From: an uncultured Methanosarcinales archaeon
Lineage (GTDB): Archaea > Nanobdellota > Nanobdellia > Woesearchaeales > SKGA01
Length of the DNA: 64,000 nucleotides
NCBI GenBank assembly: GCA_964611285.1
Contig: CAZSZY010000001.1
Location: 1,593 to 65,592, forward strand
Direction: 5' to 3'
Below the pieces are notes generated by a model that was given only the letters and a program-made list of their open reading frames with translations, was not told where the DNA came from and did not search any database. The translations under genes and the position numbers were made by a program. Shown here one piece after another: positions 1 through 40,236 of this stretch. The first letter of the stretch is position 1, and each line of letters begins with the position of its first letter.

Positions 1-746
1 CCATCAAATGCAACAACATCTGTTTCTCCACCTGGATAATCTGGACTATTTGGTGCTAAAATATACTCATAACCATTGTATTGTTGAAGAGAAAGTCTAT
101 CAATCAAAATAAGCATGCCTTTTCCATGGTTCATGAAATCAAGGTCTACAACATCTTGCAAGCTTAAGCTTACTTGACTTCCCATACCATTATTATCTAC
201 GCTAAAGCCCACATTTTGAATGATATTGTTAAAAAGACTATCACTTTCTGCAAGACCAAAACTATTAAGTAATGTTCCAATACTATTTACTCGAACTCCT
301 TGACTATTTGCATTGACATAACTTTCTACTCCTAATTCTGAACAACGAAGTAAACCTCCCATAGTTCCTCCGAAAGATTGAAGGTCTAGATTACAATCTT
401 GCCATCCACCACCATAACGGGGAATCATTACTCCATCAAATTCAATCATATAAGGATTATAGCCAGAAACATAAAGTCCTCCTTTTGTCCAGGAAGAACC
501 TCTATTATGTAATTCTACGAGAACTTGAAAACCATTTTCGTCTCTAGAAGCTCCTTGATAATAATAAAGGTTTGGTGGTGGACTTGCTGTATCTGCAAAT
601 CTCATAAAAACACCTTGCGTGCCTTTGTAATAATCAGTATTGGATGTATCTCTGCCTAAAACAGATCCAGGGAATGCTCCTCCGTTACAAGAGCTTAAAA
701 AGAGCATTGCAATAAGCAATAATGGTAGTATTAGTCGTAGTTTCAT
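1..746 (-). CDS. Secreted surface protein, 5' part only (the ORF runs off the window start); paralog of the 797..2557 product
   Basis: Reverse-strand ATG at 746-744 opens an ORF that stays open to position 1. N-terminus MKLRLILPLLLIAMLFLSSCNGG is a Sec/lipobox-like signal, followed by a GTQG motif as in the neighbouring 586-aa protein. Confidence 0.45.
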   Translation of the reverse strand, partial: MKLRLILPLLLIAMLFLSSCNGGAFPGSVLGRDTSNTDYYKGTQGVFMRFADTASPPPNLYYYQGASRDENGFQVLVELHNRGSSWTKGGLYVSGYNPYMIEFDGVMIPRYGGGWQDCNLDLQSFGGTMGGLLRCSELGVESYVNANSQGVRVNSIGTLLNSFGLAESDSLFNNIIQNVGFSVDNNGMGSQVSLSLQDVVDLDFMNHGKGMLILIDRLSLQQYNGYEYILAPNSPDYPGGETDVVAFD

Positions 747-796
747 AGTCCTCACCTTTCGAATTGTGTATCGAGCATTTATATATTATTTGGTTA

Positions 797-2557
797 CTAT
801 TGGAAATATTGTGTAATTTGAGGCGTTACACGCACAAAATCAGCGTTTCCTTGCTTATCAATTACTTTAACGCAGATTGCTGTATCATCTTGATTATACG
901 AAGGAGACGTTGTTCTAAAATTTACTCGTTTTAAAACAGGATCATAAACACCTGCAACAATATTTTCTAGATATTTAAATTCTGGTAGATTCTTGCAATC
1001 AGGAGCTTTATTTGGTCCAACTAGTGTTGACCATGTTGCTTTTTCAACAAGTGTCCAGTACGCAATTTGTTCACAACCACAGGTTTGTTGAGGATCTTCA
1101 AACGAATTATCGTCACCATCTCTACAAGACCAAGTTAAAAATGAATCTGTAATTTCTGCTTGTTCTACTTGAGGTTTTTGATTTCTTTCGAAACATTTTG
1201 GCCATCCGCAAAAAGAACCTGGTTGACATAAATTTTTATCAATCATGCAAGAAGACGGATTTTGTCTGCAAGTTGCTTCATTTCCATAAACACAATTAAG
1301 TGCTTTCCATGCAGATTCTGTTTCTTGAACTGTTGTTCCTTGTTGAAGTATTGGCCATTTGTATGCTAAAGGATTATTTGCGGGATCATTTGTTGCCACT
1401 TCTCTAAATGGCTGTGCATTTCTAGTATCGGCATAGTATTTACAATTTGATTCGCATCGATTACCTTGATTGTCAGATATGAATGTTTCCCATGCATGAC
1501 AAAAGTCTTCATTAACAACTGTTTCTTCAAATAAGTTAAGCGGTCGTGTACGTTCAACAATAATGTTCTTTGAAATGGTGTCTGTATAAAGATAAGATAA
1601 TTCTATTCGTAAAGGCGCTAAATAATTTGAACCAACTAAGTCTATACTATTTTCTTCAAGTTTACAAACCGGCTCTGCTTCGCCTTCTCTAAGTCGCACT
1701 ATTTCTGGGAAACAAACAAGTTTATCTTGTCCTAAATAAGCATCTATTCTTAATGCGTTAACTGTTTCAGAAGTTACATCACCACAAACACCTATTAATT
1801 GTTGATCATTAATGACATCAAAGTCAGAGACTATTCCTCGACCATTATGTTCTATATGTATAACAAATTGAGGAAGTACATATGTTCCTTTTGGAACCAT
1901 GTTGGTTTCAACAGCAGTTATTGCTACTGGCGCGCCTTGTCCTTTTGAATAACTATGATCTTCTGCTTGACATACCTTTCTTCGAGGATCTATATTCTGA
2001 GGATCTTTGTCAATGCAAATATCATCTGAAAAATAAGTTTTGTAAGGATAACATGTTGTTGCATAAAACGTTGCAGTGTTTTTTTCAAAGTTTGCAACTA
2101 TTGGTTTTGCGTTAAAACTTAGAGAATCTTTTTGAGTTGCAGCATAATAAAATTCATTATCTTGACCAAATAAATAATAGTTTTCCCCATCAGGATACGA
2201 TGGCGACTTCCCATAAATTTGCAAACCAGTATAAGCGGGCTCTATGCTTTCTTCATAGTTTCCTGTTTGTTTAAGCATTTCTAATGAGTCAAATGTGATT
2301 TTGAATGATGCCGTATAATTGTCAACGATATCAAATGCGCCTTTATTTTCTACGAGGATTTGCACATCAAGCGGTGCACCTTCAAATACTTTTTCAGGAG
2401 GTGCTTGCTCTAAAAAAGATAATTTTAAACCTTGTGTTCCTGTAAAATAATCAACATCAGTAAAGCTGTATCCTCCTCTACCAAAAGGCGAACCAGACAT
2501 TGTGCAACTTGCAAGGAAAAGCGAGAAAATAACTAAAAATAATAATATTTTTTTCAT
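797..2557 (-). CDS. Large secreted (lipoprotein-like signal) Cys-rich surface protein
   Basis: 586-aa ORF. N-terminus MKKILLFLVIFSLFLASCT is a signal peptide with a lipobox-like Cys. There are many Cys pairs, I recognise no enzymatic motif, and it is a paralog of the upstream partial ORF. Confidence 0.5.
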   Translation of the reverse strand: MKKILLFLVIFSLFLASCTMSGSPFGRGGYSFTDVDYFTGTQGLKLSFLEQAPPEKVFEGAPLDVQILVENKGAFDIVDNYTASFKITFDSLEMLKQTGNYEESIEPAYTGLQIYGKSPSYPDGENYYLFGQDNEFYYAATQKDSLSFNAKPIVANFEKNTATFYATTCYPYKTYFSDDICIDKDPQNIDPRRKVCQAEDHSYSKGQGAPVAITAVETNMVPKGTYVLPQFVIHIEHNGRGIVSDFDVINDQQLIGVCGDVTSETVNALRIDAYLGQDKLVCFPEIVRLREGEAEPVCKLEENSIDLVGSNYLAPLRIELSYLYTDTISKNIIVERTRPLNLFEETVVNEDFCHAWETFISDNQGNRCESNCKYYADTRNAQPFREVATNDPANNPLAYKWPILQQGTTVQETESAWKALNCVYGNEATCRQNPSSCMIDKNLCQPGSFCGWPKCFERNQKPQVEQAEITDSFLTWSCRDGDDNSFEDPQQTCGCEQIAYWTLVEKATWSTLVGPNKAPDCKNLPEFKYLENIVAGVYDPVLKRVNFRTTSPSYNQDDTAICVKVIDKQGNADFVRVTPQITQYFQ

Positions 2558-4806
2558 GCTTCTACCCTCACTACAACTGATTTTTGTATGCTATATTCAT
2601 AATCAACAGTCAATAACATAGTGGTTTTACTCCAGTCAACACCTCGCGGGAAAAATACATTTACATAATTCTTATCTACAGAAACATCGCATTCTATGGT
2701 GGTAAAAATTTCCCATGCTTTAAAGTCATCTAAAATATTGTAAATCCATCTACCTTCTTCAGACATTGGTTGTAAATCCATTCCTGGTGCAAAATTACAA
2801 TTTGAAAGAGCCAATCCTTCAGGCATGTTAAATTGTGCCTCTGTTACTCGCTCTATTTTTTGTATGCCACCAGTTTCATCATTTGATTTTTGTAATTGAA
2901 ATTTGATTTTATGAATTCTACTAGGGTTATCATCTTGTATGCCTTCTACATCTATAGCCATTGGCATTTTCAAAATATTAGCTCCCATTTCTTTTGTATT
3001 AGAAACACCAATTTGTATAGGACCAGCACTCGTGATTGCTTTTGTTTCCTCACTGAGAAGGTCGTTAATATTTGTTGTTTTTCCGGAATCTTTTTCTTGT
3101 ACTAAAAGGACGTTTTCAAAATCAGAAGATATGAGTTTAATAGGTAATCTCAGAGTTGAGCGATAGTTATAGACTGCTTTGACATCAACATTATGTGAAC
3201 CTGGAGGTAGTCGCTGAAAAATACAACTTACTCTTGGGAAAAAACTTGCTGTAACTTCCACAGGATAACTAGGGTCAATAATTCCCATGTACGTTCCTGT
3301 TCGACAACTTGTTGAGATACTTATGGGTTCGTAGGAGTTTGCTTGATAGTCAATATCTATTTGTATGGGCTCTGTCGAGTAAAATATTTCTTTGAGAGGG
3401 TCAGGATTTTCCATCGTTACTCCCATGAACTTATACGTCGATTCAGTTTCTCCTTCAGGCAAAAATTCTCCTTCTCCTTTAAGTCGTTGTTCTGTTATCC
3501 AAAGCTGTACTTTTTCAAGAAGATTTGCATTTTCCCAATTTGCATCTCGCTCTGCTTTTGTTTGTTGCATATCGGCTTGAGCCCTATCACTTCCTAGATA
3601 AGGAATGAATGAAAAACTAGTAAGTATTAGAATTGCTATAATCATTGTTGCAGCAATTGTTCGAGAGGAAACAATATCCATAGATTTCAGAACGAAAAGA
3701 ATACTAAATAATGCAAAGAGAGCCATGACAATAACAGTATTGCCTTTAAAGAATTGGGCAAGGAACTCATTTGCTTTAAGCATTAAACTAAGAATTACAT
3801 TTAATGCCATAAACATAAGTAGACCAAACATTTCTTTTTGTTCAAGCACTCCTAATTTTGTTCCTAAAAGTAAAAGTAACGCAATAACAATTATTACGGG
3901 AAGTGATGACATCATATGTGTTTCTGAGAATGCACCTATTCCAAATGGTCCTGCAACAGCAATACCAATAAAAAAGAGTAAAAAAACTAGTTTTTGATTT
4001 TCTGCTGCAAGTCCACTAAAGTGTCCTCGTATTCTTGCTAAACGTTTTTTTAATTTATCTCGTTCATTTGCTTCAACAATAGCTATTTTATGATCATAAT
4101 CTTGTCGTACTCGCTCTATTTTTCCAGGTAGTTTTTCTTCCCATGCTTTACGAAGTTGTGCTGGAGGACCCCATTTTGCTAAAAGTATTTCTGGTGCTAA
4201 ATCTGCAAAGTTTCCGAATACAGGAATCATACCTATGGCCATATCCACTACTAAAAAAATAAGGATTTTGATGTAAGCCATTAAATCAAAAAGTAAAAGA
4301 CAAGGTATAAACCAAAATACTGCTGAAACAAAAAATGAAATTATATCTCCTACAAAAGGAATCCATCCAAGAGCAAAATCAACAGCGCCCATCAAGTATA
4401 AAGAAATATTGCTCATGAAAAAACTATAAGGAAAAGGAGGACTACCTGAACGCATCTTTTCTATTTTTGCGTCACACTGTTGTTTGAGCTTTTCAATTTT
4501 TGCTCTTTTTTCTTCATTTACTTTTGTTGTTTCTTCTGTTTCTTCTTTTTGCTCTTCTTGTTCTTTTTCTAATCGCTCGTTTTCTTTTTCTTGAGCTTCT
4601 TCTGCTGCAGAATTATCTTGGGGAGGAGAACGAGTTGTTGAAGCAACTACTGGCGCAACCACTACGGGCTCAGGTGCTTCTACAGGTGTTGCTTTTTCAG
4701 TAAGTTTATCAGAAAGTTTTCCAAGAGCTTTTTCACCAAGAGCAGCAACACCTTCTTCAAGTGCTTTCTTTCCTTTGGATCCTAAACCTGAAAATTTACC
4801 TGGCAT
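2554..4806 (-). CDS. Membrane protein with an N-terminal Glu/Lys-rich coiled-coil, a polytopic TM core and a large C-terminal extracytoplasmic domain
   Basis: 750-aa ORF whose stop overlaps the start of the 797..2557 gene. It has a low-complexity EEQKEETEE segment and 6-8 predicted hydrophobic helices in the central region. Confidence 0.45.
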   Translation of the reverse strand: MPGKFSGLGSKGKKALEEGVAALGEKALGKLSDKLTEKATPVEAPEPVVVAPVVASTTRSPPQDNSAAEEAQEKENERLEKEQEEQKEETEETTKVNEEKRAKIEKLKQQCDAKIEKMRSGSPPFPYSFFMSNISLYLMGAVDFALGWIPFVGDIISFFVSAVFWFIPCLLLFDLMAYIKILIFLVVDMAIGMIPVFGNFADLAPEILLAKWGPPAQLRKAWEEKLPGKIERVRQDYDHKIAIVEANERDKLKKRLARIRGHFSGLAAENQKLVFLLFFIGIAVAGPFGIGAFSETHMMSSLPVIIVIALLLLLGTKLGVLEQKEMFGLLMFMALNVILSLMLKANEFLAQFFKGNTVIVMALFALFSILFVLKSMDIVSSRTIAATMIIAILILTSFSFIPYLGSDRAQADMQQTKAERDANWENANLLEKVQLWITEQRLKGEGEFLPEGETESTYKFMGVTMENPDPLKEIFYSTEPIQIDIDYQANSYEPISISTSCRTGTYMGIIDPSYPVEVTASFFPRVSCIFQRLPPGSHNVDVKAVYNYRSTLRLPIKLISSDFENVLLVQEKDSGKTTNINDLLSEETKAITSAGPIQIGVSNTKEMGANILKMPMAIDVEGIQDDNPSRIHKIKFQLQKSNDETGGIQKIERVTEAQFNMPEGLALSNCNFAPGMDLQPMSEEGRWIYNILDDFKAWEIFTTIECDVSVDKNYVNVFFPRGVDWSKTTMLLTVDYEYSIQKSVVVRVEA

Positions 4807-34428: not shown

Positions 34429-35724
34429 TTAAGGTTTGAATCTTGTGGGTGTTCTTGGAAATGGTATTGCATCTTTAATACTATCAAGTCCGCAGATCCA
34501 TGCAATCACTCGTTCTACTCCTACACCGTAACCGCTATGTGGTACGCTACCGAATTTTCGCAGGTCAAAATACCAATCATAGTCTGCTGGGTCTTCTCCT
34601 TCTGCTGCAAGTCGATCACTCATATCCTTAACATCAAGACTTCGCTCACTTCCGCCTACAATTTCTGTTCCAATGCCAGGTGCTAACATGTCAAAGCATA
34701 GTGCTTCGTCAGGAAATTCTGGGTCTCGTGGTTTGTAAAAACCCATTGCAACGACTGGATAATGTGTAACTATGCAAGGCGTGTCAAAATGTTGCATGAT
34801 TGCTCGCTCTTCTTCTGTTCGAAGATCTTTTCCAAAGGGAACATCAATACCATCTTTTTCTTTAATCATTGCAACTGCATCTCGATATTTGATGCTCGGC
34901 CAGTCTTTCTCGCACATTGCAATAAGTGCTTGTGGATCTTGTTCTAAAAATTCAAAATCTTCTGCTCGCTCTTCTGCGCATTTTTTGACGCAGTATTTGA
35001 GTTCTTCTTTTGCAAATGCAGTAACTTCTGGTAGTTGCATCCATGCTGCTTCCATTTCTGCCATCCAAAATTCGCTTAAGTGACGTGACGTATTACTTTT
35101 TTCTGCACGAAACGTTGGTCCCATGTCGTAGATTTTTTCTAGTGCAAAAATTCCTGCTTCGCCGTATAACTGCCAAGTTTGTGCCAAATATGTTTTGTCT
35201 TGATAGTATTTTACTTCAAAAACCGTGCTTCCACCCTCACTTTGTGAAGGTTGTAGTATTGGCGTATCAAATCTAAAAAATCCTTGTTGTTTATAAAATT
35301 CATCTCTAGCTTGCACATAGCTACTTCGAATTTTCATAATTGCTGTAAGTCGTCGGCTTCTAAGAGAAAGATGTCGTTTGTCCAGCAAGAATTCTTGGCT
35401 TTGGTCTTTTCCTATTGGAAATTGATCGCTTTCACCAACGACAGTAAATTCTTTTACTGCAATTTCATAACCACTTGGCGCTCGCTCATCTTTTTTGATA
35501 GTGCCTGTTATCTTCATACTTGCTTCGATTTGCAGTTTACCTGCAATGTCAAATTGTTCATCGCCAATAACATCTCGTTCTATAACACATTGTATAATTG
35601 CCGAGCTATCTCTAAGTACGATAAATTGTAGTTTTTTACTGCCTCGTTCTCTATAGACCCAACCGCGAATGGAAACTTCTCCTTCGCCCTGAGCCATTGC
35701 TTCTTTTATTGATTGGTATGTCAT
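34429..35724 (-). CDS. asnS: Asparaginyl-tRNA synthetase (class IIb). AsnRS is favoured over archaeal-type AspRS
   Basis: About 431 aa from the likely start MTYQSIKEAM at 35724; the drawn ORF extends to 35784. It has an N-terminal OB fold. Motif 3 is GSVPHSGYGVGVERVIAWICG. The GGSERSLDV segment resembles the AsnRS GGSQRE motif. Confidence 0.65.
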   Translation of the reverse strand: MTYQSIKEAMAQGEGEVSIRGWVYRERGSKKLQFIVLRDSSAIIQCVIERDVIGDEQFDIAGKLQIEASMKITGTIKKDERAPSGYEIAVKEFTVVGESDQFPIGKDQSQEFLLDKRHLSLRSRRLTAIMKIRSSYVQARDEFYKQQGFFRFDTPILQPSQSEGGSTVFEVKYYQDKTYLAQTWQLYGEAGIFALEKIYDMGPTFRAEKSNTSRHLSEFWMAEMEAAWMQLPEVTAFAKEELKYCVKKCAEERAEDFEFLEQDPQALIAMCEKDWPSIKYRDAVAMIKEKDGIDVPFGKDLRTEEERAIMQHFDTPCIVTHYPVVAMGFYKPRDPEFPDEALCFDMLAPGIGTEIVGGSERSLDVKDMSDRLAAEGEDPADYDWYFDLRKFGSVPHSGYGVGVERVIAWICGLDSIKDAIPFPRTPTRFKP

Positions 35725-35972
35725 TTTTGTTTCCTCATATTGTTTATTTTGATTTTTTGGAAAATGAATGATAAATATAAGCACAATACTCCTTAATAAG
35801 AGTTTGTATTAACTGCCTACAAGGGCTAGAAAGTGGTTTTATGCACGATTAATTACACTATACACTACTTGAAGCATTGACTTGTCCTTGTCCGTTGTTG
35901 TATAGTATGCGTACATCTTAAGATAAAATAATCATAACTCATTTATAAATTTTGGCAGTATAATTAAGAGAA

Positions 35973-36590: not shown

Positions 36591-37121
36591 ATGGTTTTTA
36601 TTGATATTACTAAAACTGATTATTTAATGAGTAATCAAAGAAGATTTATTGAACTTATTATTTATGCAAGCAGCGCATTTCTAATTCCATTTTTACTCGG
36701 TCATCCGCAATGGCTAGTAGGTATTCTCGTAAATACGTCTTTAGTGCTTGCAGGTCTTAACTTAAAGAAACATAATTTACTTCCCGTGATCATTCTTCCT
36801 AGTATCGCAGTATTAACAAAAGGATTAATTTTTGGACCATTTACTGTTTTTTTACTTTACTTCATCCCTTCAATTTGGATAGGTAATGCCTTACTTACTC
36901 TTTCCATGAAGTTAAAGATGAATAAATGGATTAAACTCACTATGGGAGTTGCATCTAAAACTGTTCTTCTCGGAGTGACTGCACTAGTACTTGTTAATTT
37001 TAATGTTGTTCCTGAATTATTTTTGGCAGTTATGGGTTTAACTCAGCTATATACTGCAATTGGCGGGGGCTTTCTTGCATTTAGCATTCACGAAATTAAG
37101 AAACGAGCGTTAACAAAATGA
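36591..37121 (+). CDS. Small polytopic membrane protein, translationally coupled to the hydrogenase-like gene
   Basis: 176 aa with 5 TM helices. Its stop overlaps the start of 37118..38167 (ATGA). Confidence 0.35.
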   Translation: MVFIDITKTDYLMSNQRRFIELIIYASSAFLIPFLLGHPQWLVGILVNTSLVLAGLNLKKHNLLPVIILPSIAVLTKGLIFGPFTVFLLYFIPSIWIGNALLTLSMKLKMNKWIKLTMGVASKTVLLGVTALVLVNFNVVPELFLAVMGLTQLYTAIGGGFLAFSIHEIKKRALTK

Positions 37122-38167
37122 AGAATTTCATAATTAATCTTGTTGTAGATAAAAAAAAGTGCATTGGCTGTAAGCTTTGCGTTAATGCTTGCCCTGTAAA
37201 TGCAATCACTATTATTGATAAAAAAGCATTTATTGATAACGATAAATGTATTAGCTGTGGAAAATGTGATATTGTTTGTCCTGTAGATGCTATTAACTTT
37301 CCAACAGATGTGACAAAAATTGAGGAAATGTTTGTTAACAATGAAAAAATCTTTTTGCTCGTTGCTCCTTCTTTTGTTGTTCATTATGGAAGTGAAATTC
37401 CCGACTTACTTTTAGATTGGCGAAGTTGTGGCTTTGATAAAATTGCTGAAATTACTTATGGTGCAAAACTGGTAACAGAAAGATATCAACATCTTATCAA
37501 AGAAAAAAAAGAAGCGAGATATATTACATCAACTTGCCCTGTAACCTTTGACTACATCTTCAAATACGAAGAACATAACATAAAACATGTTGCTCCTATT
37601 GTTTCTCCAATGGTTGCTATGGGTATGGCAACAAAGAAATATTTTCCTGAGCATAAAACAGTATTTGTTGGTCCTTGTCCTGCTAAAATTGTTGAGGGCC
37701 GAGAATATGAAGCTATTGATGCTGCGTTAACATTTTTGCAGTTCGACAAATTATTGTCTAAGTATAGAAATAAAATAACTGTTGAAGAAAATGATCATTC
37801 GAAGTCGTTTGATAACTTTTACAATAATAGAAACAAAATCTATCCTCGCTCTGGCGGTCTATCTAAAATTATGACTGAACACGGCGTTCTTCATGACGGA
37901 CAATACATCGTAAGAGATGGCGTTCTAAGTATTAACGAATTGTTCTCCAGCGAAGTTCCTTTAGAAATAATATTTGTTGATATCTTGTTCTGTCCTGGTG
38001 GTTGTATAGGTGGCCCTGGGTTAAAATCAGTTCTCACAACTGAAGAAAAAATGCATTTCGTTGATGAATACAGAGAAAAAACAAGAGAAAGTGATGAAAA
38101 ACTCATTCAAAAATTTAATTTTGAATTAGTAGATGATTTTGACTTAACTCCTTGTTTCTTCAAATAA
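37118..38167 (+). CDS. 2x[4Fe-4S] ferredoxin domain fused to an [FeFe]-hydrogenase H-cluster-like domain (HydA/Narf-like, with atypical motif L1)
   Basis: 349 aa. There are two CxxCxxCxxxCP ferredoxin motifs (CIGCKLCVNACP, CISCGKCDIVCP). H-cluster motif equivalents are L1 TSTCP (canonical TSCCP), L2 PCPAKIVE (PCxxKxxE) and L3 FCPGGCIGGPG (ACPGGCxxGGGQ). Confidence 0.6.
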   Translation: MKNFIINLVVDKKKCIGCKLCVNACPVNAITIIDKKAFIDNDKCISCGKCDIVCPVDAINFPTDVTKIEEMFVNNEKIFLLVAPSFVVHYGSEIPDLLLDWRSCGFDKIAEITYGAKLVTERYQHLIKEKKEARYITSTCPVTFDYIFKYEEHNIKHVAPIVSPMVAMGMATKKYFPEHKTVFVGPCPAKIVEGREYEAIDAALTFLQFDKLLSKYRNKITVEENDHSKSFDNFYNNRNKIYPRSGGLSKIMTEHGVLHDGQYIVRDGVLSINELFSSEVPLEIIFVDILFCPGGCIGGPGLKSVLTTEEKMHFVDEYREKTRESDEKLIQKFNFELVDDFDLTPCFFK

Positions 38168-38600
38168 AAAAAGCAGCTAATTTCAAAACATCAGATATGT
38201 CGTCCCAACCACTAGAAGAAGAAGTGGCGCCTTGTTGTTGTAGACAAGACTGATAATCATAAGCTAGAGATTGACATTCGGCAACTAAAGAATTAAATTC
38301 TTCCTCATAATAATCTAAATCATAAGAAGCACGATTATAATCTCCTGTTAAAGAATTATATTCACTTAACAATTCATTATAGTCATCTACTAAATCATTA
38401 TAATCATCAAGTAAAAGAGTGGAATTCAAAACCAACGCATTATAATCTTCTTCTAAAATGTCATGATCCGCTTGCAGAAGAAGGTTATCTTCGTTTGAAA
38501 CTAATTGATTAGAAATTTGAAACATAATAATACACAAAAAAACACCTGAAACTACCAAAAAAACATAAAAAGCAGTTTTGTAAGATTTTTGATGCTTCAC
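38160..38600 (-). CDS. Secreted/anchored low-complexity protein with DYN-type heptad repeats
   Basis: 146 aa. It has an N-terminal TM/signal and repeats DDYNDLVDDYNELLSEYNSLTGDYNRASYDLDYY. Confidence 0.35.
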   Translation of the reverse strand: MKHQKSYKTAFYVFLVVSGVFLCIIMFQISNQLVSNEDNLLLQADHDILEEDYNALVLNSTLLLDDYNDLVDDYNELLSEYNSLTGDYNRASYDLDYYEEEFNSLVAECQSLAYDYQSCLQQQGATSSSSGWDDISDVLKLAAFFI

Positions 38601-39024: not shown

Positions 39025-40236
39025 TTAATCTCCTTTCCAGTCAAGGTAGAATTTCACTTGGTCGCGTCGTTCTGCTTCCATATAGCGATGTTTTATGTTG
39101 CTAGAAAACTCTTTATTTTCTTTTCCACTAAAATATTCTTCTAAGAACTCTTTTGCGTAATCGTCATAAGAACCGTTTTTTATTGCTTCTCGCAGTTCTT
39201 TAACAAGATTGTTCATAAAATGTAAGTTATGAATTGTTGCTAGTTTGTAGCCAATGAGTTCATGACTTCGAAGCATGTGATGTACGTATGCTCGAGAATA
39301 ATTTTTGCATGTAGAACAAGTACAACCTTCTTCAATTGGCCCTTTGTCTTCTTTATACAAAACTTTTTTGATGGCAATTCTTCCTTTCTTAGTAAGCATG
39401 CTTCCATGTCGTGCGTTTGATGTTGGATAAATACTGTCAAAACAATCAACTCCAAGACCAACAGCTTTGACAACATCTGGCGGACTTCCTAAGCCCATAA
39501 GATACTTTACTTTGTCAACTGAAAAATGTTTCACACTTTGCGCAATCATATCCATAAGCTCTGCTCGGCTCTCTCCAATAACAAGACCTCCAAGCGCAAC
39601 ACCATCAAAATCCATTTCATTAATTTTATATGTGGAAAATCTCCTGTATTCATCGCGTGTTCCACCTTGCGCTATACCAAAGAGTAATTGTTTACTTCCT
39701 GTTTCTTCTTTGATTTTTTTATGATGCAGTAAACTTCGTTTTGCCCAATCATGAGTTCTTCGTATCGCATCAACATATGATTTTCCATCTAACCCGTAAT
39801 GCGCAACATCATCTAATGTCATGGCAACATCAGAATTTAATTTGAGCTGATTTTCCATAGCAATCTCAGGGGTATACTTATGCTTCTTTCCCCATTTATC
39901 TTTGAAGAGTGCGCCCTCATCTGTTTTCTTAATTAAGAAATCTTTACTTAAGACTTGAAATCCACCGCTGTCTGTAAAAATTGTTTTATTAAAACCGGTG
40001 AATTTGTGAATACCGCCAAGTTTTCCCACCACATCAATTCCTGGCGCAAGCGAGAGAAGAAAGGAGTTGTTAATCATTGCTTCATAACCAAGAAAATCAA
40101 TGTCATCAGCAGCCATGGCTTTGACACTACCTTTGCTTGCAACAGGCATAAAAAAAGGTGTGATAACATCTCCGTGTGCCGTAGTAAGTTTTCCTACGCG
40201 CGCCTTGCCATCAGTATGAAGTATTTGAAATACCAT
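39025..40236 (-). CDS. tgt: tRNA-guanine transglycosylase catalytic domain (archaeosine/queuine TGT family), with no PUA or C-terminal domains
   Basis: 403 aa. It has the TIM-barrel TGT motifs (DSGGFQ, GIAQGG), a zinc site CTCSTCKNYSRAYVHH, and the archaeal-type N-terminus MVFQILHTDGKARVG. Confidence 0.8.
   Translation of the reverse strand: MVFQILHTDGKARVGKLTTAHGDVITPFFMPVASKGSVKAMAADDIDFLGYEAMINNSFLLSLAPGIDVVGKLGGIHKFTGFNKTIFTDSGGFQVLSKDFLIKKTDEGALFKDKWGKKHKYTPEIAMENQLKLNSDVAMTLDDVAHYGLDGKSYVDAIRRTHDWAKRSLLHHKKIKEETGSKQLLFGIAQGGTRDEYRRFSTYKINEMDFDGVALGGLVIGESRAELMDMIAQSVKHFSVDKVKYLMGLGSPPDVVKAVGLGVDCFDSIYPTSNARHGSMLTKKGRIAIKKVLYKEDKGPIEEGCTCSTCKNYSRAYVHHMLRSHELIGYKLATIHNLHFMNNLVKELREAIKNGSYDDYAKEFLEEYFSGKENKEFSSNIKHRYMEAERRDQVKFYLDWKGD

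Follow-up and report, generated by a model that had tools for sequence, protein, structure and literature searches.

A ferredoxin-fused minimal [FeFe] hydrogenase homolog with threonine at the proton-relay position in a woesearchaeal genome

Introduction

Can an [FeFe]-hydrogenase-like protein that lacks the proton-relay cysteine still be a hydrogenase? This question is raised by a gene at positions 37118-38167 (plus strand) of a 64,000-nucleotide stretch of DNA (the window; GenBank assembly GCA_964611285.1, contig CAZSZY010000001.1, positions 1,593 to 65,592), which was deposited under an uncultured Methanosarcinales archaeon and is placed in the Woesearchaeales by GTDB. Based on open reading frame (ORF), Pfam, AlphaFold2 and Foldseek analyses, the gene encodes a ferredoxin-fused minimal [FeFe] hydrogenase of 349 amino acids (aa), in which a ferredoxin domain (F-domain) is followed by a compact H-cluster domain (H-domain), and its start overlaps the end of a membrane-protein gene directly upstream. 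A preliminary description of this DNA had recognised the three H-cluster motifs (L1 to L3) and, on account of a threonine in place of the relay cysteine in L1, had regarded the protein as a sensory or Narf-like relative and not as a catalytic enzyme. Our analysis favours a different answer, which we hold to be the probable one on balance: the gene would specify a genuine [FeFe] hydrogenase of the group E lineage, linked to ferredoxin, evolving H2 and using a non-canonical proton path.

The preliminary description had also called [FeFe] hydrogenases uncommon in archaea, which is outdated, as they have been reported from nine archaeal phyla; of 130 archaeal genomes encoding them, no more than 5 have the full set of the maturases HydE, HydF and HydG (HydEFG) (Greening et al. 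2024, PMC11216029). In the same study, the group E ('ultraminimal') enzyme Fm, whose source is a closed genome without maturases, was expressed and matured with the azadithiolate-bridged [2Fe] cofactor ([2Fe]adt), its H-cluster was seen by Fourier-transform infrared spectroscopy, and voltammetry showed that it works in both directions and favours H+ reduction; the enzymes modelled there for groups A1 and E were described as free of additional clusters, and the group E enzymes had an average length of 286 aa (PMC11216029). The enzymes of groups C and D are slow and putatively sensory, and one of them, TamHydS, has alanine at the position of the relay cysteine, C299 in the numbering of the hydrogenase CpI. 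In the published tree, group E is sister to the sensory group C.

Fold and H-cluster site

The identification of a ferredoxin-fused [FeFe]-hydrogenase homolog proved to be genuine. The F-domain (residues 9-60; 37142-37297, plus strand) was matched by two copies of Pfam Fer4 and by Fer4_21 and contains two CX2CX2CX3CP motifs (C15/18/21/25 and C44/47/50/54), predicted to bind two [4Fe4S] clusters, and the H-domain core (residues 77-300; 37346-38017, plus strand) matched Fe_hyd_lg_C (PF02906) at E = 4e-32 and was recovered by Foldseek. The H-domain and the tail together comprise about 285 aa, and the protein ends about 45 aa beyond L3. The AlphaFold2 model, built on a 47-sequence alignment, had a predicted local distance difference test (pLDDT) score of 91.8 and a predicted template modelling (TM) score of 0.90, the last 20 residues having a pLDDT of 65-77. 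Foldseek matched the model to CbA5H, CpI, DdH and the HydA of HydABC with E values of 1e-16 to 1e-18 and query-relative TM scores of 0.70-0.75, and the hydrogenase fold is far above chance resemblance. In the alignment with CpI (phmmer, PDB sequences), TSTCP was paired with TSCCP, PCPAK with PCTSK and CPGGC with CHGGC. Alignment and structure prediction, which had been proposed as checks, showed that the likeness in L1 to L3 is not coincidental, and no cysteine appeared at the L1 position upon realignment. The top NCBIfam model was TIGR04105 ('monomeric [FeFe] hydrogenase') at 160.6 bits; because this is below the cut-off of 450, the protein fits no curated NCBIfam subfamily.

The three motifs had been read correctly from the translated ORF (TSTCP, PCPAKIVE and FCPGGCIGGPG), as had the retention of the ligating cysteine and the change of the relay cysteine to threonine. 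L1 (T137-S-T139-C140-P141 within YITSTCP; 37526-37540, plus strand) has Thr139 (codon ACT, 37532-37534) at the position of CpI Cys299 and Cys140 (codon TGC, 37535-37537) at that of the ligand Cys300. In L2 (P186-C187-P-A-K190 within GPCPAKIVE; 37673-37687, plus strand), Cys187 and Lys190 correspond to C355 and K358, and in L3 (F291-C292-PGG-C296-IGGPG; 37988-38020, plus strand), Cys292 and Cys296 correspond to C499 and C503; Gly185 replaces M353 and Leu290 replaces M497, as in groups C and D. The predicted ligands of the [4Fe4S]H cluster, C140, C187, C292 and C296, were invariant in 199 aligned relatives, except for the C300 column of the A3-type protein of locus L010. The residues in contact with the [2Fe] subsite are also present, namely A83-P84-S85 (CpI A230-P231-S232), S163-P164 (S323-P324), K190 (K358) and E193 (E361), and those that contact [2Fe] only were invariant in the window-protein clade and in about 200 relatives. 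This conservation indicates that the whole set of ligands and contacts is maintained by purifying selection. According to the alignment column counts, Tyr242 (codon 37841-37843, plus strand) occupies the CpI Phe417 position in the [2Fe] pocket, where tyrosine was found in 6/6 members of the window-protein clade and in 41/41, 40/40 and 36/37 members of the short family described below (one Phe among 118), and phenylalanine in 44/48 and 25/26 sequences of the other groups (B, C and D, mostly Phe).

The exceptional L010 protein (2273-3967), an A3-type HydA encoded beside a homolog of the membrane protein, has an L1 of ITSCSPGW, in which the C300 [4Fe4S]H ligand is changed to serine.

The proton-relay position

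The threonine is shared by the whole clade: all five orthologs (51-70% identity, 348-374 aa) read ITSTCP, keep all 12 cluster cysteines and have the same architecture. In the C299 column of the 199 aligned sequences, threonine was found in 6/6 members of the window-protein clade, V, T, N, A or P in archaeal short proteins (T in 10/37), V, P, T or A in metagenomic short proteins, P in 40/40 short proteins of the candidate phyla radiation (CPR), A, S or C in group C/D-like proteins and C in 26/26 group B-like proteins. The L1 of Fm is ICGNCP, with asparagine at this position, and no cysteine was found there among the sampled members of the short, E-like family. These counts indicate that threonine at the relay position is an ordinary state of the group E lineage, and the headline oddity of the gene is not exceptional. 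The loss of the cysteine had been taken as a sign of non-catalysis; because a residue other than cysteine is the rule in this family and one member is experimentally active, the loss alone is no argument against catalysis.

The other positions of the group A proton pathway are replaced as well (C299 by T139, E279 by R122, E282 by H125, R286 by E129 and S319 by A159). The relay cysteine and this pathway, neither of which the window hydrogenase possesses, are features that define groups A and B and not the whole superfamily.

Relatives and phylogenetic placement

Among 5.8 billion protein clusters, only six proteins of this type were found (P0001-P0006), labelled Woesearchaeota or Nanoarchaeota, and phmmer, run exhaustively against 1.84 billion 50%-identity representatives, returned one representative of the clade at 565 bits, the next match being at 188 bits. 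The next relatives, at 33-40% identity, are many H-domain-only proteins of about 275-310 aa; beyond them stand group C-like proteins, which are about 560-580 aa long, have PF04060 and PAS domains and read TSACP at L1, and group B-like proteins of some 470 aa, in which the motif is SSCCP or TSCCP. In the scan of GTDB species genomes, archaeal members of the short family came from Iainarchaeota, Nanoarchaeota, Woesearchaeota and Pacearchaeota. One of them (L018) is encoded in the closed genome of Ca. Forterrea multitransposorum and agrees with the Fm enzyme of Greening et al. 2024 in genome, family and length (286 aa, which fits 33 kDa). The published account of group E presents it as a clade of archaea (Greening et al. 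2024, PMC11216029). Short H-domain-only hydrogenases (272-327 aa) were unexpectedly also widespread in the CPR, in Dojkabacteria/WS6, Saccharibacteria and Microgenomates (L014, L017, L019, L020, L022, L023 and about 35 further loci), with SSPCP or ASPCP as L1.

In a neighbour-joining analysis of the H-domain with 100 bootstraps (80 non-redundant sequences over 234 columns, with an A3-type HydA as the root), the window-protein clade and the short family including Fm grouped with 100% support, the window-protein clade was monophyletic with 100%, and the group C/D-like sequences joined next with 91%. Likewise, the H-domain scored best with the profile hidden Markov model (HMM) of archaeal E-like proteins (230.5 bits), followed by those of the CPR short (211.4), C/D-like (191.1) and B-like (137.9) proteins.

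The likeness to group E and Fm extends to a compact H-domain of about 280 aa with four cysteine ligands, the [2Fe]-site residues, a residue other than cysteine at C299 and tyrosine at F417, and further to a host of the DPANN archaea (Diapherotrites, Parvarchaeota, Aenigmarchaeota, Nanoarchaeota and Nanohaloarchaeota) and to the lack of maturases nearby. Of the marks of group E, the grouping with Fm, the condensed H-domain and the non-canonical proton residues are thus present, but the restriction to an H-domain is not: the protein differs from group E by an extra 2x[4Fe4S] F-domain (349 vs about 286 aa), by its identity of only 33-40% and by its own deep branch, and from Fm by Thr instead of Asn at the relay position and by L2 PCPAK, as in group C. 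With the group C/D enzymes TmHydS and TamHydS it shares the N-terminal 2x[4Fe4S] domain followed by the H-domain, the 86-aa spacing, a small residue other than cysteine at C299 and the replacement of M353 and M497, and with many group C-like proteins GPCPAK in L2. Unlike groups C and D, it has neither a C-terminal Fe-S domain (PF04060) nor a PAS or signalling domain, no Pfam match to these or any other output domain being found; it has Tyr and not Phe at F417, and its score with the C/D-like HMM is lower (191 vs 230 bits). The C-terminal 220 aa of the group C-like proteins P0023 and P0034 are absent from it in the alignment. Group A (CpI, CrHydA1, CbA5H) has in common with it the fold (TM 0.70-0.75), the order of F-domain and H-domain seen in the core of CpI, and identical cluster ligands, K358 and APS motif, but the identity is about 20%, C299, E279, E282, R286, S319, M353 and M497 are all missing, its loops are condensed and its C-terminus lacks an extension resembling the small subunit.

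The N-terminal F-domain is probably ancestral. Its eight cysteines align without gaps with the N-terminal ferredoxin domain of group C-like proteins, and the last ferredoxin cysteine is 86 aa from the L1 cysteine in both; because of the colinear alignment and the identical spacing, the domain looks inherited and not newly fused. Judged from these alignments, the six proteins look like a rare, deep-branching and intermediate-looking clade, and the window hydrogenase resembles a group C enzyme reduced to its N-terminal half, with an H-domain of the group E type. As compared to group E, the retained F-domain looks new, and it is set apart by the description of the modelled group E enzymes. Other complete-looking proteins of about 350 aa with a ferredoxin domain and an H-domain are P0284, P0343 and P0346 (32-33% identity; L1 STACP, SSSCP or SSPCP), and short forms of this kind may have arisen or persisted more than once.

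The C-terminal tail is specific to the clade (DDFDLTPCFFK; 38132-38164, plus strand; seen in the alignment and modelled with low confidence) and follows the pattern L-x-DD(F/I)D(L/F)(T/S)PCF in all six orthologs, C346 included. In the alignment, this tail lies opposite the first part of CGACGYxxC, the Fe-S motif in the C-terminal domain of group C-like proteins, and it may be a vestige of that domain.

Predicted function and alternative explanations

In a hydrogenase of this architecture, the two F-clusters would accept electrons from ferredoxin or a 2-oxoacid:ferredoxin oxidoreductase (OFOR) as the reduced low-potential donor and pass them to the [4Fe4S]H cluster ligated by C140, C187, C292 and C296 and from there to the [2Fe] subsite held by K190, A83-P84-S85, S163-P164 and E193, where H+ would be reduced to H2 and fermentative reductant disposed of. 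With C299, E279, E282, R286 and S319 all replaced, protons could not travel along the group A pathway and would need a route peculiar to the family. Candidate relays or hydrogen-bond partners of the azadithiolate amine are the hydroxyl groups of Thr139 and of Tyr242, the latter nearly invariant in the family; this assignment, made from sequence, is speculative. Turnover would probably lag behind that of group A enzymes.

The genomic surroundings of the family are consistent with such a role. Among 80 loci of short hydrogenases (L012-L091), 33 encode the beta subunit of pyruvate:ferredoxin oxidoreductase (PFOR) or OFOR within 5 kb of the hydrogenase gene, 23 encode PFOR alpha/gamma at this distance and 30 encode ADP-forming acetyl-CoA synthetase. 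These clusters, found in archaea and the CPR, look like a module converting pyruvate to acetate, ATP and H2, and the neighbour counts agree with the adjacency of oorAB/porAB remarked for these hydrogenases (PMC11216029).

Several observations weigh against this interpretation. No PFOR, ADP-forming acetyl-CoA synthetase, U32 or radical S-adenosylmethionine (radical-SAM) genes were found by tblastn (E <= 1e-4) in the window or the ortholog loci, and because of this the fermentative-module argument holds for the family and not directly for the window locus. HydE, HydF and HydG were not found in the 64-kb window either, where no ORF of at least 120 aa has the radical-SAM motif CX3CX2C; in this the preliminary description was right. 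The glycine at M353, the leucine at M497 and the missing canonical proton pathway resemble the slow, putatively sensory groups C and D. When Cys298, the equivalent residue, was substituted in a group A scaffold, every replacement except Asp left an activity below the detection limit of the screen, 14% of wild type (PMC3485046). The membrane-protein gene that is coupled to the hydrogenase gene in the window is absent beside the orthologs P0002, P0004, P0005 and P0006. As for the lineage, the tree is a neighbour-joining tree on 234 columns with support of only 53% for the short family minus the window-protein clade, at which the clade may be the sister of group E or lie inside it, and the group labels were assigned by length, domains and motifs, only Fm being tied to the published classification.

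Part of the evidence would fit an H2-sensing or very slow hydrogenase like the HydS of groups C and D, which would bind the H-cluster and report H2 or redox state with no sustained flux. This half of the preliminary claim was well founded as far as the pocket is concerned, since C299 is not cysteine, Gly and Leu stand at M353 and M497 and E279, S319 and R286 are lacking, and the layout and spacing of F-domain and H-domain are those of the N-terminal 300 aa of group C-like proteins; the sister relationship of groups E and C in the published tree and the lack of an adjoining PFOR gene in the window point the same way. Yet the output side of a sensor is missing: the protein has no PAS, C-terminal Fe-S or other output domain, no kinase, phosphatase or other regulator adjoins the gene, and the partner gene encodes a transporter-like membrane protein and not a signalling protein. 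Moreover, the H-domain scores best with the E-like family, whose member Fm is biased to H+ reduction, unlike TmHydS. A sensor or very slow enzyme is therefore unlikely in our judgement.

About equally unlikely, in our assessment, is that the protein never receives the [2Fe] subsite and acts as a plain Fe-S redox protein or cluster carrier, functionally like Nar1, or performs chemistry with [4Fe4S] clusters only. Such a protein would account for the lack of HydEFG in the window, as in most archaeal genomes with [FeFe] hydrogenases (PMC11216029), and for the lost relay cysteine and canonical pathway, but it would leave the invariance of the [2Fe]-only contacts in the clade and about 200 relatives hard to explain, and Fm, from a closed maturase-less genome, takes [2Fe]adt and becomes active. 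The Narf-like half of the preliminary claim was rejected. Nar1/NARFL is a eukaryotic factor of cytosolic iron-sulfur protein assembly with a hydrogenase-like fold, which has lost the [2Fe]-site residues and binds [4Fe4S] clusters only. The window hydrogenase retains all of these residues (K358, A230-P231-S232, S323-P324 and E361) together with the eight-cysteine 2x[4Fe4S] domain, its nearest relatives are prokaryotic enzymes of groups E, C and B, and no Nar1 or NARFL chain was found among its PDB sequence matches. The idea that the threonine is a sequencing or assembly error, or that the gene is decaying, has practically nothing to recommend it: a change between ACT and TGY takes two base substitutions, the frame is intact, the orthologs agree in ITSTCP and the 12 cluster cysteines, and the identical protein was found on contigs of separate assemblies. 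The pseudogene and sequencing-error readings were rejected, since the orthologs keep the same features.

Other members of the short family have neighbours of a different kind. A gene of the U32 peptidase family (PF01136, E = 1e-76) lies upstream of the short hydrogenase on the same strand in 9 loci of an Iainarchaeota/Forterrea-like subclade, and a radical-SAM gene with a Cys-rich C-terminus lies downstream in 10 loci, on the opposite strand in L071 of Pacearchaeota and on the same strand in the rest (U32- or radical-SAM-flanked loci: L031, L040, L047, L049, L064, L067, L068, L069, L077, L084 and L088). These flanking genes are possible candidates for a maturation without HydEFG.

The coupled membrane protein and its locus

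The most interesting lead of the locus is the membrane protein linked to the hydrogenase. Its gene (36591-37121, plus strand) encodes 176 aa of an unnamed family with a fold like that of the S-components of energy-coupling factor (ECF) transporters, and the ATGA overlap with the hydrogenase gene at 37118-37121 (TGA 37119-37121, ATG 37118-37120; plus strand), described before as translational coupling, was confirmed in the sequence. Six helices were predicted and not five transmembrane segments as first described. The protein shares the six-helix fold with the S-components RibU, ThiT, BioY, PanT, FolT, BtuM and CbiM, but it is only 6-13% identical to them and is paired in the genome with a hydrogenase. 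Sequence and profile searches (Pfam, NCBIfam, PDB) with 30 members of the family gave no match, which places it outside the described S-component families. It is probably the 'hyd6TM' of Greening et al. 2024.

More than 120 homologs of the membrane protein were found in DPANN archaea. Within the clade, a 57%-identical copy lies directly upstream of the P0003 hydrogenase, and because the gene is absent beside the other four orthologs, it is not obligatory. The P0005 locus (L174) has a class II aminoacyl-tRNA synthetase gene (asparaginyl- or aspartyl-tRNA synthetase type) divergently upstream and the P0004 locus (L172) a tRNA-guanine transglycosylase gene downstream, both as in the window; since the flanks are common to L172 and L174 (window 34429-35784, 36591-38167 and 39025-40236), the membrane-protein gene was gained or lost at this site within the clade. 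In wider sampling, a gene of this family stands about 50-170 bp upstream of the short hydrogenase, mostly divergent, in 32/41 CPR loci and 2/39 archaeal loci; it follows an A3-type hydC-hydB-hydA operon in L010 and faces one in L011. The reverse check agreed, with an [FeFe] hydrogenase gene within 5 kb in 17/28 metagenomic loci of the membrane protein that had at least 1.2 kb on both sides. In L011, from Altiarchaeales, the A3-type hydA beside hydB/hydC (684-2380, minus strand) is split into two ORFs (423 and 126 aa), by a frameshift, as a pseudogene or through an assembly error.

The polar residues Q40, N48, N99, K123, Q152 and T155 are invariant in the DPANN and CPR copies of the membrane protein, among which no invariant His, Cys or acidic residue was found; for this reason, a metal site of the CbiM/NikM type is disfavoured and a polar organic ligand is favoured. 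No conserved EcfT/EcfA (ATP-binding cassette ATPase) neighbour was recognised in the ten representatives read of the 25 most frequent neighbour clusters of the 80 hydrogenase loci. ECF modules are often encoded elsewhere in the genome, and solitary S-components exist. Most likely, the membrane protein supplies a small molecule needed by the hydrogenase system or tethers the enzyme to the membrane, and its cargo may be a vitamin such as riboflavin for flavin-dependent partners, a hydrogenase-specific precursor or, if it is only an anchor, nothing at all. A bolder proposal, which we regard as a long shot, is that it forms an uptake system for a hydrogenase-specific cofactor or precursor, such as a ready-made [2Fe] synthon or another building block of the H-cluster, which would be scavenged from hosts or surroundings, and that the ferredoxin-fused clade is a surviving intermediate between group C and group E. 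Our literature search found nothing that links ECF S-components, or CPR Dojkabacteria, to [FeFe] hydrogenases, and neither the S-component fold nor the link of the family to E-like enzymes and to CPR bacteria seems to have been reported so far.

On the other side of the hydrogenase gene, a convergent ORF of 146 aa (38160-38600, minus strand) shares 8 nt with the end of the hydrogenase gene, stop codon included; its product has a hydrophobic helix at the N-terminus, continues in heptad-like repeats rich in Asp, Tyr and Asn (DDYNDLVDDYNELLSEYNSLTGDYN) and gave no significant Pfam match. A scan for sigma-70 promoters and terminators returned 13 sites against 10.1 expected, which is uninformative for an archaeon.

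Implications

If the interpretation as a working group E-lineage enzyme is right, the window encodes a natural [FeFe] hydrogenase with threonine at the relay position and a built-in electron-entry domain, and it would offer a compact scaffold to study proton delivery without the canonical Cys/Glu/Ser/Glu/Arg pathway. The combination of a group C N-terminal half with a group E-type H-domain would also bear on the origin of the ultraminimal enzymes, which probably involved domain loss. How maturation or support proceeds without HydEFG was raised as an open question by Greening et al. 2024 (PMC11216029), and a transporter-like membrane protein linked to several [FeFe] hydrogenase groups in DPANN archaea and the CPR would, if the linkage has this meaning, provide a handle on it. 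Should the uptake proposal be true, it would explain the active [FeFe] hydrogenases in maturase-less DPANN archaea and CPR bacteria.

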